Shown here: in pieces, positions 2,195 to 49,090 of the stretch
Position numbering within the stretch: the stretch's first letter is position 1
Layout: every line of letters begins with the position of its first letter
NCBI GenBank assembly: GCA_964016885.1
Contig: CAXHJY010000246.1
Coordinates: 3,830-67,829, forward strand
Reading direction: 5' to 3'
Source: Eledone cirrhosa
Taxonomy: Eukaryota
DNA: 64,000 bases
Translations under genes and position numbers: made by a program
Notes under the pieces: generated by a model
Database searches by the model: none
What the model saw: only the letters and a program-made list of their open reading frames with translations
What the model was told of the DNA's origin: nothing

Positions 2195-2688
2195 GTATAT
2201 ATATATATGTATATATATATATATATATATGTGTGTGTGTATATATATATGTATATATATATATATATAAGTATGTATATATATATATATATATATATAT
2301 ATATATATATATATATATATATATATATATATATATATATATATATATATATATACATATATATATATACATATATATTCATATGCGTGTATATATATAT
2401 ATGTATATACATATATATATATATATGTGTATATATATGTATATATATATGTATATAACGAAGGAATTATGGTAAGGAACCAGATGCACCATAACGCACC
2501 AGAGTACTCAATACTTAGGGTAGTAGAGTCGGTCTAACTTTTTCCTATATATGTATATATATATATGTATATATATATATATGTATATATATATATATAT
2601 ATACATATATATATATATATATATATATATATATATATATATATATATATATATATATATATATATATATATATATATATATATATAT
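2195..2688. repeat. (TA)n/(TG)n microsatellite field interrupted by a short element tail at ~2458-2545
   Basis: Long TA dinucleotide runs; these give the YIYI-type spurious ORFs. Similar tracts recur throughout the window. Confidence 0.95.
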
Positions 2689-2880
2689 AGTGAGGGAAAA
2701 GTGGTAAGGAACCAGGTGGACCATAACGCACCAAAGTACTCAATACTTAGGGTAGTAGAGTGGGTAATAGGATTAAGTAAGACCCCGACGGCTGAGCTCA
2801 AGCCGTTTCGACGGCTAATTCTGTACAGAATTAGCCGTCGAAACGGCTTGAGCTCAGCCGTCGGGGTCTTACTTACTCCT
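2689..2880 (-). mobile_element. Foldback Penelope-like remnant: near-perfect palindrome (~2775-2875, centre ctgtacag) plus 3' tail; carries 3' half of a hammerhead
   Basis: Arms are reverse complements; GAAA-CGGCUUGAGCUCAGCCG-UC-GGGG; tail also present at ~2460-2530; flanked by (TA)n. Confidence 0.7.
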
Positions 2881-2941
2881 ATATATATATATATATATAT
2901 ATATATATATATATATATATATATATATATATATATATATA

Positions 2942-3376
2942 TACAATATTAAATAAATGGAAAACTATATTTATAAAACCATATTTATTTCATTATATAT
3001 ATTTCGGGGATATCATATTAACAATATGCTATGCCTTCATCAGACAAAATACAATATAAACAGTTTTATAGATAAATAGATTCGACATACCGTTATAACA
3101 CCGACTTCATTTGAAGAGGTTTAAGTCGGTGTTATAACGGTATGTCGAATCTATTTATCTATAAAACTGTTTATATTGTATTTTGTCTGATGAAGGCATA
3201 GCATATTGTTAATATGATATCCCCGAAATATATATAATGAAATAAATATGGTTTTATAAATATAGTTTTCCATTTATTTAATATTGTAAATATACTCCAA
3301 ATATTTGTCGAGTGCTTTTATATCAGTTATAAATATTTACTAGTTGTAACCCAACAATTTTAAATATAACTTTCCA
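2942..3376 (+). mobile_element. Foldback Penelope-like element in (TA)n: inverted arm 2942-3107, 15-nt spacer, arm 3123-3288, tail 3289-3376
   Basis: ~165-bp inverted repeat with a hammerhead motif in each arm; unique tail ends in (AT)n. Confidence 0.8.
3179..3244 (+). ncRNA. Minimal type I hammerhead ribozyme (mirror copy on - strand at 2986-3051)
   Basis: Stem I UAUUUUGU/AUGAAAUA; CUGAUGA 3187-3193; stem II GG..CAUAUU-GUU-AAUAUG..CC; GAAA 3225-3228; palindromic stem III; predicted cut AUA after 3236. Confidence 0.8.
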
Positions 3377-3480
3377 TATATATATATATATATATATATA
3401 TATATATATATATATATATATATATATATATATATATATACACACACATATATATATATATACACACACATATATATATA

Positions 3481-3815
3481 TATATTAATAAAATTAATTC
3501 CAACTTTGTCTGATTTACTCGTTTTATTTAATCCTTTAAAATTTATAATGGTATTAGAATCAATTTATAATGGTATTAGAATCAAGTTTGCAATTTTCAA
3601 CTGTTGAAAATTACAAACTTGACTGTCACCACACATTATGAACCTGAAGATTGCGAAAGCATGAAAGTACTTGTTCAATTAACACTTAACATTTAATATT
3701 CTACCATACTATTTCATTCTAATACCATTAAACATTTTAAAGGATTGTAAATAAAACGAGTAAATCAGACAAAGTTGGAATTCCTTTTATTAATATAATC
3801 TTCTATACACAATCA
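3481..3815 (+). mobile_element. Rearranged foldback element with hammerhead, in (TA)n
   Basis: ~3481-3560 is the inverted copy of ~3716-3797; internal hairpin ~3581-3622; tandem duplication of atttataatggtattagaatca. Confidence 0.65.
3639..3677 (+). ncRNA. Minimal type I hammerhead ribozyme (39 nt)
   Basis: UGAAC CUGAAGA U-UGC-GAAA-GCA-U GAAA GUAC UU^GUUCA; stem III lies in palindrome AAGUACUU; predicted cut after 3672. Confidence 0.8.
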
Positions 3816-4017
3816 TACACATATATACACATATATTTATCTCTCTCTCTCTCACTATATATATATATATATATATATATATTGTTATACTTTAGGGGAG
3901 TTATACTTCCAATAAAAACACTCCAATTGAGTTTCACTATAGTTTATTATTAGTTGAGTGACTAATCCATCCTTCAGTTAGTTTTGTAGCCGGAGGATGA
4001 AGGGTTACTTATGAATT

Positions 4018-4060
4018 ATCAAAAACCTTTCGTCACACATCATGTGACCTTCTCAATGAC
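4018..4060 (-). ncRNA. Variant hammerhead with U3:A8 core
   Basis: Minus strand GUCA UUGAGAA G GUCACA-UGAUG-UGUGAC GAAA GGUU UU^UGAU; stem I is only 4 bp and there is one extra G before stem II. Confidence 0.45.
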
Positions 4061-4544
4061 TATTCTTGCTCTTCTTTGTCTCTTTTTTCTTCTGATCTTC
4101 TTCTATTCACTCCATCTAGTAGCTTGAATATGTTTTACAGACTGCGGGTATTATCTGATAGGGACATCTATATATAGATTAAAATATGATCATTTTTCTT
4201 TTTAATTTCACTAAGTAGCAGTTACTTGTAATACAAGTTTCATTCGGTGGCTGAGCACAACTGTCCTGATTGGCTGGAGAAGAAACTTTAATCTCAATGT
4301 GAAATTACGTCTAGTGGTTAAACCGTGAACCAGCTCGTTTCGTCTTTATGTATACTCATCGTTTGACTACACCATAACTACACTTCATTCCTTTATCTCT
4401 CTGACTTCATTAATTCACGGCATAAATTCACAATAATTGTACAGACAAGTCTTGCTACATTTAGAAACATAAAAAGCGCCAAAACCACATAAATACTTAT
4501 ACACATGCGCACACATACACCTACATACAGACACATGGACACAA

Positions 4545-46385: not shown

Positions 46386-46406
46386 TCTTGAAGAAGAAGA
46401 CGTGAG

Positions 46407-46682
46407 GTACTGATGTGTTCATTGACACGGATATGTTGTGGTACTAAGGTGTTTATTGACATAGATATGTTGTGGTACTGGGGTGTTTATTGACCTAGAT
46501 ATGTTGTGGTACTGATGTGTTTATTGACCTAGATATGTTGTGGTACTGAAGGGTTTATTGACCCAAATATGTTGTGGTACTGAGGTGTTTATTGACCTAG
46601 ATATGTTGTGGTACTGAAGGGTTTATTGACCTAAATATGTTGTGGTACTGAAGTGTCCATTGACCCGGATATGTCGTGGTCT
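46407..46682. repeat. 34-bp minisatellite, ~8 copies
   Basis: Unit gtactgaggtgtttattgacctagatatgttgtg. Confidence 0.9.
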
Positions 46683-47252
46683 GATCGTGCTTCCGATGTA
46701 AACTTCGCCATATATGAGACATTAGATACAGTAAACTATGTATATCTATGTATATCTATAAGTATGTGTTACGAATAGAGCCGTTCTCCAACGCTAATTT
46801 GTTTTATATATATTCTTAAAATATATCTGAAGATATCCTATTACTCCATATTAGCCCAATTTTTGTAAAATTTGATATTACACTTAACTATTTAGAGATA
46901 TATAATTACTTAATTACGAAGATGGGACATAGAATAATGTTTGCAATAACCAAGGCTTTTTGAAGGTTTATTTAATCTATTTTTCAAACAATCGTTACAT
47001 CAAGCTTCTAATTTGCTAATCAAATTTCTTTTCAGCTTAATAAACAATATATATTAGAGTCTGTGTCATAAAGATATATCGTGTAAGTGTTTGCAGCTTT
47101 GTGGTTTTTGTTCTCTCAAACAGGCACACACACATACGCATATACACACATGCATATACATACACGCACACATACATACATACATACATACATACATACA
47201 TACATACATACATACATACATACACACATTCACACACATGCACATACATACA

Positions 47253-47861
47253 TGGTGGCTGCCAACTCGTTTTCGAGTACGGCCACTACTTTATATCCAT
47301 GTAGGAGAACCCCTACCGATGCGCTGAACGAGTGTGACTTTTTAGTCCAGCCAGCGACTTGAAAACTCTGGTACAAACACTACACTTGTGACAATTATTG
47401 ACACATAGTGCTGGGCCCATGGTACCATGTGACGACAAGTGCAGAGAGATCTCCAGATATAAAGCAATGCCTGTGTCGTGAAGCTTTTATAGTGAGAAGA
47501 AGGCACTGCACAAAGCCAGTCCCACTCTCTTAACCAAGATGATATTTACCAAAAAGAAGAACAAGTCAACATCATTGGATACCATCAGGGTTGCAGGTGT
47601 TATATCAGAGTTTTCCTTCTCCTAGAATTTTGCCTTGACAAAGGCTAAGGGGTCATCTCTCCCGGTGATTTTGGATGGCCATTGACTCTTAAGAGCTCCT
47701 TTGCCCTTTGACAGGTTTTGTTTTTAGTCCTGCAGGATGTCCAAAGTCACCCTCCTCACCAAGAAACCTTGGGGGGGGTTGCCAGTTTAGTTGCCAACGA
47801 CCCGACCATGAGACAGGTTGTACTGGGATACATGTTACCAGTAGCACCAAGTGGTGACCTG
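47253..47861 (-). mobile_element. ~600-bp non-autonomous RTE-like element, copy 3
   Basis: Reverse complement of copies 1 and 2 with the same termini; in (CATA)n. Confidence 0.85.
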
Positions 47862-48402
47862 ACATACATACATACATACATACATACATACATACATACA
47901 TACATACATACACAAATACATACACACGCACATACATACATACATACATACATACATACATACATACATACATACATACATACACAAATACATACACACG
48001 CACTTACATACATACATACATACATACATACATACATACATACATACATACATACATACATACATAAGCTGATTAAATACATGTACTTTTTCCGTTTCTT
48101 CCACTTCTCACTCTCTTCTATCTTTCTATTGATGAAAGATTAGTGTCCGAAATGCTAAAACACTTTTCCTACTATAAAAGTGTTAAACTAATATATATCT
48201 TCATTGAAGTGTATTGTTTGCTTTTATTGTACTTTTACTTTTCGCATGCGCGCCGCTGATCGTTTTTAGATGTCCTGTATTAAGCGCCGAAACATACTGA
48301 TCTCGGTTTTACAGCTGATGAAGGATTTCTTTTCTTCTCTTGTTTCGTCCATACTACCATCTTAAACTATATATATATATATATATATATATATATATAT
48401 AT

Positions 48403-48700
48403 ACGTGGAAAAGTAAGAAATCGGAGAATAGACCGTTAAAACATGTTTATTTAAAACAGTACCTACGTACGTACGTAGGTGGTGTTTTAAATAAACATGT
48501 TTTAACGGTCTATTCTCCGATTTCTTACTTTTCCACGTGCTTACGCTCTGCCAACTCTCTAGCCCACTAAATATTAACACTTCAAATATTTAATACTGCC
48601 GGCACTAATATCGAGCACCTTTGGCATACCCTACTTGCAAATAACTATATGTATCACCTATCCTCCCCTTTTTTTCTCTCTCTCGATACGTAAATACTGT
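48403..48700 (+). mobile_element. Foldback element: arms 48403-48458 and 48483-48538 plus tail
   Basis: 56-bp inverted repeat with palindromic centre cctacgtacgtacgtagg; flanked by (TA)n. Confidence 0.65.
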
Positions 48701-48954
48701 ATATATATATATGTGGGGGGGGGGGGTCTGCGGTGCCCTACACCGAAGAGATCCCAAATCATGGGAGTACTCAATGCATGCGGAGATGGGTATAGAGATA
48801 AGTATAATCCCGACCGCGAAGCCGAAACCGCTTGACGCCACGGTTGGGATTATACGTACATATATATATATATGTGTGTGTGTGTGTGTGTGTGTGTGTG
48901 TGTGTGTGTGTGTGTGTGTGTGTGTGTGTGTGTGTGTGTGTGTGTGTGTGTCAT

Positions 48955-49090
48955 GTCTCTGTCTCATGAACTATGAATACACAGGAGAATCTCCAGAGTA
49001 GCAAGACTCAAATTTGACCTAAATAAATAAAATATTAATCTCTACAAAAGTATTGAGGATTCATTCTCGTGTTTGTCAATACTCAGTAGA
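48955..49090 (+). mobile_element. Decayed member of the 21245-21438 hammerhead family
   Basis: ctgt-ctcatga...gaat-ctccagag-ta-gcaaga (mutated core); tail homologous to reverse complement of ~21575-21625. Confidence 0.6.

Follow-up and report, generated by a model that had tools for sequence, protein, structure and literature searches.

What is the small bulged hairpin that recurs near the ends of repeated elements in a 64,000-nt stretch of the Eledone cirrhosa genome (contig CAXHJY010000246.1 of assembly GCA_964016885.1; the whole stretch is called the window below), and why do element copies end next to it? Judged by sequence, the window copies of the motif belong to Penelope-like elements (PLEs) of the Hydra clade. 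The motif has the form R-CUC-stem-loop-stem-UH-GAG-Y-ACU and is found twice per intact element, between the hammerhead and the ATG, and copies of the element stop a few nucleotides before one hairpin or the other. We consider it probable, at roughly 65%, that each hairpin is a docking site for the reverse transcriptase (RT) located 3' of an internal priming site.

The arrangement is clearest in the autonomous family H. At 30 loci, its copies stop at either a short end or a long end, ~108 nt apart, and the stretch between these two fixed ends is the tail. Hairpin 1 begins 6 to 7 nt past the short end; it is the hairpin seen in tails, and only long-ended copies retain it. In tandem read-through copies, a second hairpin of the same form follows the long end, starting 6 nt past it and preceding the ATG. 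The leader thus reads, from 5' to 3', hammerhead, hairpin 1, 55 to 108 nt, hairpin 2, and ATG, with hairpin 2 some 30 to 90 nt before the ATG. A coding role for the motif was dropped, since both hairpins lie upstream of the ATG in intact elements; the open reading frames (ORFs), 58 kb in all, held only 5 sense and 9 antisense matches.

The second hairpin of family H led us to predict a hidden hairpin 2 in the other window families. We searched the genome with read-through patterns consisting of the long tail end plus RCTC, leaving the rest of the hairpin outside the pattern, and with backward patterns as a control. The forward patterns matched 378 times for family A, 286 for D, 34 for C, and 5 for F, and the backward controls gave 0 matches. 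The remainder of hairpin 2 was present at 28/30, 18/20, and 20/20 read-through loci of families A, D, and C, respectively, and a Hydra N-terminus followed it at 20/30, 19/20, and 20/20. In family A, hairpin 2 lies four nucleotides past the long end. All five read-through copies of family F have UU-GAG-CAC downstream, four with a C-G closing pair, and an ORF start was not seen in these five. Family I (loci L233 to L236) has a hairpin 2 with a long apical part seven nucleotides past the long end. The family G pattern gave 0 matches, and no hairpin 2 was found for its three window sites. Hairpin 2 was therefore found in six of the seven window families in which it was predicted.

We mapped microsatellite-bounded 3' ends on seven natural references, using for family B a substitute hairpin (described below) as the second anchor; the family F reference was left out of the counts because it contained a TA run and produced thousands of false matches. 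In 730 kb of random sequence plus the window, 51/55 ends fell no more than 14 nt upstream of either hairpin, as did 100/102 in other loci, against ~12% expected for evenly spread ends (30 positions in roughly 250). Looser settings applied to 860 kb placed 72/84 ends before a hairpin, and in metagenome elements all 11 ends away from contig edges lay at -2 to -9. In the stricter mapping most offsets were -3 to -8, and an end 4 to 9 nt before its hairpin is typical overall.

The first-pass annotation of the window had proposed a single recognition stem-loop upstream of the element end, as in long and short interspersed nuclear elements (LINEs and SINEs). Hairpin 1 does lie 30 to 80 nt before the microsatellite in long-ended copies. 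However, short ends make up about half of all element ends, and these copies stop before the hairpin and lack it; the distance from hairpin to long end varies with hairpin spacing (55 to 108 nt), whereas that from an end to its downstream hairpin is constant; and hairpin 2 is left unexplained. The proposed placement therefore failed, and we regard a model of this kind as very improbable. The leader position of both copies, with hairpin 2 close to the ATG, could also suit binding by the element's own protein for another purpose, as a translational operator or an RNA packaging site, with the relation to element ends being secondary. The distance to the start codon varies widely, however, while that to the element end does not, which makes this the least probable of the explanations weighed here, although the same binding might serve such a function in addition.

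If the hairpins act as docking sites, the template would be an unspliced read-through (tandem) sense RNA, and the protein would grip the conserved hairpin base, that is, CUC/GAG, the U-led 2-nt bulge, and the 3' ACU. The nicked (TA)n target would pair with UA/AU in the AU-rich stretch 3 to 11 nt upstream, and RT would start copying internally, just 5' of the hairpin. A hairpin that sets a start would stay uncopied, which would explain why tails show hairpin 1 only. TAT or ATA occurs at -11 to -2 of 45/54 hairpins, compared to 16/53, 23/53, 18/57, and 19/57 in neighboring intervals, an enrichment that fits primer pairing to a (TA)n target.

Short and long arms were combined in 27 of the 29 classifiable inverted pairs (random sequence, 15/16; window, 3/3; ORF-selected loci, 9/10), and no short-short pair was found; three more pairs had an unclassified arm. 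Short and long arms showed no consistent asymmetry in length. A one-sided tail was already known from Adineta Penelope (PMC3846280) and from PMC8557442; the addition here is a separate hairpin for each side. A less firm extension of the docking model is that two protein subunits, one on each hairpin, each prime one of the target strands. Such programmed double priming, with a dimer on two hairpins and each subunit priming one cut (TA)n strand, would yield head-to-head arms of which only one carries the tail; from the sequences available we hold it as a tentative proposal, with the balance slightly against it. At loci L032, L033, and L372, inverted arms can run through the whole unit into the preceding pseudo-long terminal repeat (pLTR), implying tandem read-through or circular templates.

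The same pairs speak to another possibility, in which the hairpin is an RNA 3'-end formation signal, with a cut 4 to 9 nt upstream, made by a host nuclease, by the element's protein, or by the RNA itself, and ordinary target-primed copying from the new end. It would account for the identical geometry of ends relative to hairpins, and in Poseidon_Ac (PAc), the one reconstituted PLE, RNA-seq read ends are reported to map to its two sites (PMC11167929). Cutting at hairpin 1 would, however, remove the hairpin-2 site, so that arms should pair randomly, whereas we saw 27 short-long, 2 long-long, and 0 short-short pairs. Moreover, offsets follow the nearest TA/AT instead of a fixed distance, and PAc is described as starting internally in vitro on uncut RNA (PMC11167929). 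We consider a 3'-end signal unlikely.

The carrier was identified through family H. The ORF fragment at 9025 to 9633 has at least 150 close copies in the genome, and intact copies encode a single 781-codon ORF with RT and a C-terminal endonuclease, in a 3.1-kb tandem unit and in inverted pairs. TA runs flank both ends, and hammerhead cores are present by pattern. Craig et al. (PMC8557442) give the diagnostic set of the Hydra clade as RWK, DKG changed to DKT, CxCx5C, CxxC/CxH, and no CCHH. The family H protein has RWK at 37, DKT at 119, CxCx5C at 630, YVG at 664, a single CxxC at 728, and CxH at 756, carries YRDD in its RT, and lacks CCHH; we therefore assign it to the Hydra clade by these motifs, our protein tree having contained no named reference Hydra proteins. 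Pfam gave zero matches to the ORF fragment, and no relative was found in viral contigs. For family G, represented by three window sites, no linked ORF or autonomous partner was found, and its clade assignment accordingly relies on the motif.

All nine instances listed by the first-pass annotation were recovered in place and on the strands given. A strict scan required CTC, three or more Watson-Crick pairs, a T-N bulge, and GAG, with the motif defined post hoc after its first sighting in the window; it returned eight of the nine, compared to 0.9 +/- 1.0 (maximum, 4) in 100 block-wise dinucleotide shuffles of the window. The ninth, at 8350 to 8377, was missed because it requires one G-U pair. 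The terminal microsatellite expected past the hairpin lies 30 to 80 nt downstream at 8/8 strict sites, and a TA run begins ~73 nt past the ninth. The sites had been said to come from different families; several families are indeed involved, but the nine sites represent only six, with 2507 and 2739 in one and 21272, 21605, and 49040 related. A wider scan added a tenth copy, at 7320 to 7398 (+), with a 71-nt apical part. Further features beyond the initial description are the pair below CUC/GAG, the conserved unpaired ACU after GAG, and the second motif copy. In 530 kb of random genome sequence, there were 40 strict matches, compared to 2 to 13 in 10 shuffles, with a microsatellite within 120 nt downstream of 28/40 and upstream of 10/40; the excess of ~33 per 530 kb, scaled to 3.0 Gb, gives an estimate of ~10^5 motif copies. 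No relevant Rfam family was found for the window: the 150 matches listed were all below the gathering score and lay on simple or long inverted repeats.

Beyond this genome, a metagenome scan gave 77 loci at 32 to 38% protein identity (best 80 of 537 matches). When 57 elements whose N-terminus is intact were clustered at 65% identity, 40 families resulted (33 metagenome and 7 host), most of these deeply diverged families being of marine metagenome origin. Of the 40, 23 have two motifs, 11 have one, and 6 have none, so that at least one motif is present in 34/40. In motif-holding loci, leaders contained 48 sense and 2 antisense matches. Six published Hydra consensuses were also compared, with hosts other than that of Amil taken from family labels. 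The sea cucumber consensus Hydra-1_Ajap has both hairpins before the ATG, Hydra-2_Ajap and Hydra-2_Amil have hairpin 1 plus the tail, and one coral consensus ends short of hairpin 1. Motif variants occur in the copepod consensus, among them a compensatory CCC/GGG with a GA bulge; CUC/GAG and the U-led bulge, initially called invariant, are therefore kept in nearly all cases but not in every one. Four motif 9-mers, in a check aimed at Naiad/Chlamys, gave eight matches in the PMC8557442 supplement, where line breaks may hide others: four in Hydra leaders or tails and four in apparent ORFs of other families. Hairpin 2 of metagenome locus L066 is nearly identical, loop included, to hairpin 1 of host family D (6209 to 6231).

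Covariation was counted in 57 hairpins at positions anchored by sequence only, since their variable lengths could not be aligned by MAFFT. The pair below CUC/GAG (-1) is Watson-Crick in 55/57 (G-C, 46; A-U, 5; U-A, 4), compared to 39.6 after permutation, which ignores kinship. As the first-pass annotation had claimed, the upper stem changes yet stays paired: pair +1 is Watson-Crick in 52/57 (C-G, 38; U-A, 14) versus 32.6, followed by 38 versus 17.5 at +2, 33 versus 15.0 at +3, and 26 versus 15.3 at +4, whereas +5 is at chance and not significant. In hairpin 1, pair +1 is Watson-Crick in 24/24, with at least eight U-A/C-G switches on the protein tree. The bulge is UU in 33 hairpins, UC in 13, and UA in 11; an unpaired A-C-U-n-U 3' of GAG is conserved (its C is part of the anchor); the apical part is 6 to 106 nt long; and the two hairpins are spaced 55 to 91 nt apart, or 108 nt in family H. 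Apical inserts of 36 to 106 nt, AT-rich or microsatellite-like, are present at L233 to L236, L238, and window positions 7320 to 7398, with the hairpin base kept.

The stem holds G-U in 15 cases and A-C in 3, which favors the sense strand as the one that folds. This asymmetry matters for a further pair of alternatives, a DNA-level role, in which the GIY-YIG endonuclease reads the motif while resolving a tandem intermediate, and an antisense role, in which the motif forms a template-boundary stop helix. Resolution by the endonuclease is the explanation that Craig et al. give for the tail (PMC8557442), and recognition by the Drosophila virilis endonuclease, as cited in PMC11167929, depended on the tail. 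The case for an antisense template was made by Arkhipova et al. (PMC3846280); on such a template the helix would lie 5' of the stop, like the boundary helices of telomerase (PMC4993307). Besides the G-U excess, both roles are opposed by the hammerhead lying on the same strand as the hairpin and by the copying of sense RNA from these sites by PAc in vitro, as reported in PMC11167929, and an apical part of 6 to more than 100 nt is unlike a duplex DNA site. Taken together, we think either role quite unlikely.

Several observations weigh against docking at paired hairpins as we have described it. According to PMC11167929, the PAc start site is the same on both strands and has no homology to the target. 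Two inverted pairs are genuinely long-long, and end-to-hairpin offsets span -2 to -13. Among 29 families with a leader of at least 200 nt, the anchor rule, under which two hits were mis-anchored, found two motifs in 18, one in 8, and none in 3; family H is among those 3, missed because its ACU has drifted. A phylogenetic sign test was concordant in 5/5 independent pairs (P = 0.0625), only five pairs being available. The whole-leader minimum-energy fold contains the motif in one of six leaders, and in local folds, where the lower stem has a median probability of 0.97, the first apical pair is weak at 0.23. The published consensus of the octopus element Hydra-1_Obim has no clear motif. The young Hydra family B keeps hairpin 1, a fixed long end, and short-long pairs, but 6 to 7 nt past its long end there is only a plain GCAC-loop-GUGC hairpin, which is kept in two subfamilies with different loops (leaders L175 and L170). 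Either a helix is enough at site 2, or something is missing from the model. Finally, a canonical PLE of the same genome (GxKF, DKG, and CCHH), of which the window holds a fold-back stump at 7890 to 8214, lacks the Hydra motif across a 6-kb tandem locus (L422).

That canonical element also delimits the role of the motif. It pairs short and long arms at 10/10 loci with both arms, with a 39-nt tail, and its ends fall inside its ORF start; no hammerhead core was found by pattern in L422. Since it follows the tail rule without the motif, that rule does not require the motif across PLEs as a whole. On the tests made here, the rule is general and the motif is the Hydra solution to it. The motif had been put forward as a cis element of PLEs: its conservation, covariation, and sense-strand location stand, and what we can support is a feature of the Hydra clade instead of PLEs generally. 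A similar CUUAAC(U)AC-like stretch comes before each of the two ends of the canonical PLE and recalls the upstream repeat in the RNA of PAc Fig. S1B.

The positions of these features are collected below.

Table 1. Hairpins, hammerhead cores, and other PLE features in the window; numbers in parentheses are offsets of an inverted short arm from the hairpin position
Feature	Position	Strand	Remarks
Hairpin 1, family A	2507..2528	-	Tail to long end near 2455
Hairpin 1, family A	2739..2760	-	Long end near 2690; inverted short arm ends 2882, 6 nt before hairpin position
Hammerhead core (CUGAUGA..GAAA), family C, upstream of hairpin 1	3187..3228	+	Predicted by pattern match
Hairpin 1, family C	3295..3312	+	Long end near 3375; inverted short arm ends 2942 (-6)
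Hairpin 1, family D	6209..6231	-	Long end near 6153; inverted short arm ends 6556 (-5)
Hammerhead core, family D	6291-6337	-	Pattern match
Hairpin 1, family I, 71-nt apical part	7320..7398	+	Long end near 7448; inverted short arm ends near 6861
Optional ~108-nt tail, family H	8277..8384	-	Short end ~8384, long end ~8277
Hairpin 1, family H (autonomous Hydra PLE)	8350..8377	-	Inverted short arm ends 9901 (-6)
Hammerhead-like core, family H, unusually long (~90 nt) stem II region	8451..8551	-	Pattern match only
3' part of Hydra PLE ORF: CxCx5C linker, GIY-YIG-type endonuclease region	9025..9633	-	
Hairpin 1, family F	10269..10291	-	Long end near 10217; inverted short arm ends 10602 (-9)
Hairpin, family G	21272..21289	-	Inverted arm stops 21431 (-11, degenerate); older, small fold-back copies
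Hammerhead core, family G	21320-21357	-	Pattern match
Hairpin, family G relative	21605..21622	-	Inverted arm: none found
Family B short-ended copy	25054-25087	-	
Hairpin, degenerate family G relative	49040..49057	+	Inverted arm: none found

Elsewhere in the window, ~10 kb at 52500 to 63000 consists of a 22-bp minisatellite, and the very long open frames there were set aside as artifacts of this repeat. Tandem arrays of 37 bp (42 copies) and 19 bp (39 copies) occupy 42073 to 43626 and 19721 to 20455, and a third array at 44630 to 45326 has 3.6 copies of a unit of ~200 bp, which we take to resemble a SINE.

Template choice, the one-sided tail, and the inverted arms of PLEs have been a puzzle for decades, and the only reconstitution, that of PAc, did not define the binding motif. 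With a motif that is duplicated, covaries, and lies at a fixed distance from both ends, the question narrows to a short list of mutants. The motif spans elements at 33 to 38% protein identity and cnidarian, echinoderm, and mollusc hosts. For annotation, it precisely marks the boundaries of a repeat class whose motif copies in this genome are estimated at ~10^5. If docking holds, the hairpin would be a compact signal steering a telomerase-related RT to an internal start. If double priming holds as well, it would be a portable address of ~25 nt by which any RNA carrying it is copied from an internal start on its 5' side, and a telomerase-related transposon enzyme would be using an internal template much as telomerase does.

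We found no description of the motif in the literature searched, a search that left most subscription papers and the Repbase and Dfam notes outside its reach, nor in the accessible portions of bioRxiv 10.64898/2026.07.22.740005, PMC7229834, PMC13282606, PMC11167929, PMC8557442, PMC3846280, and PMC4993307. The elements studied here share protein motifs, the hammerhead, and (TA)n targets with those of Craig et al. 2021 (PMC8557442), whereas leader hairpins are not described in the available text and supplement of that paper, where "hairpin" gives 0 matches.

The nearest experimental counterpart is PAc, for which Frangieh et al. 2024 (PMC11167929) report internal starts in vitro at two sites bounding the tail, a requirement for downstream RNA to +172, and extension of both target strands, modeled as a dimer. 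PAc and the Hydra elements are alike in having two fixed ends and an optional tail on one inverted arm, and just as PAc needs RNA downstream of its starts, the Hydra hairpins lie downstream of the ends. The PAc starts, as described in that report, fall inside the ORF in an AC-rich stem-loop, the tail is 30 to 40 nt, and the binding motif is undefined; CUC..UH-GAG is absent from the RNA printed in its Fig. S1B. In contrast, the Hydra sites lie in the untranslated leader, tails measure 55 to 110 nt, and a duplicated, clade-wide motif stands 3' of each end. Hydra ends also fall at TA/AT-rich stretches that match the (TA)n target, whereas the PAc start has no target homology.

Small RNA structures of two other RT systems invite comparison. 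In stringent LINE/SINE pairs, the 3' stem-loop is single, sits upstream of the priming site, and is copied into every insert. The Hydra hairpin resembles it as a small cis hairpin with a proposed role in recruiting RT that is common to nonautonomous derivatives; unlike it, the Hydra hairpin is double, lies downstream of the start, and would go uncopied when it sets that start. The template-adjacent helix of telomerase lies 5' of the template and stops synthesis (PMC4993307). Here the likeness would be a protein-bound helix with a conserved base, a few nucleotides from an internal template and serving a related RT family, provided that the Hydra protein binds as proposed. Unlike the telomerase boundary helix, the Hydra hairpin of the sense RNA lies 3' of the element ends, on the side from which copying would start.

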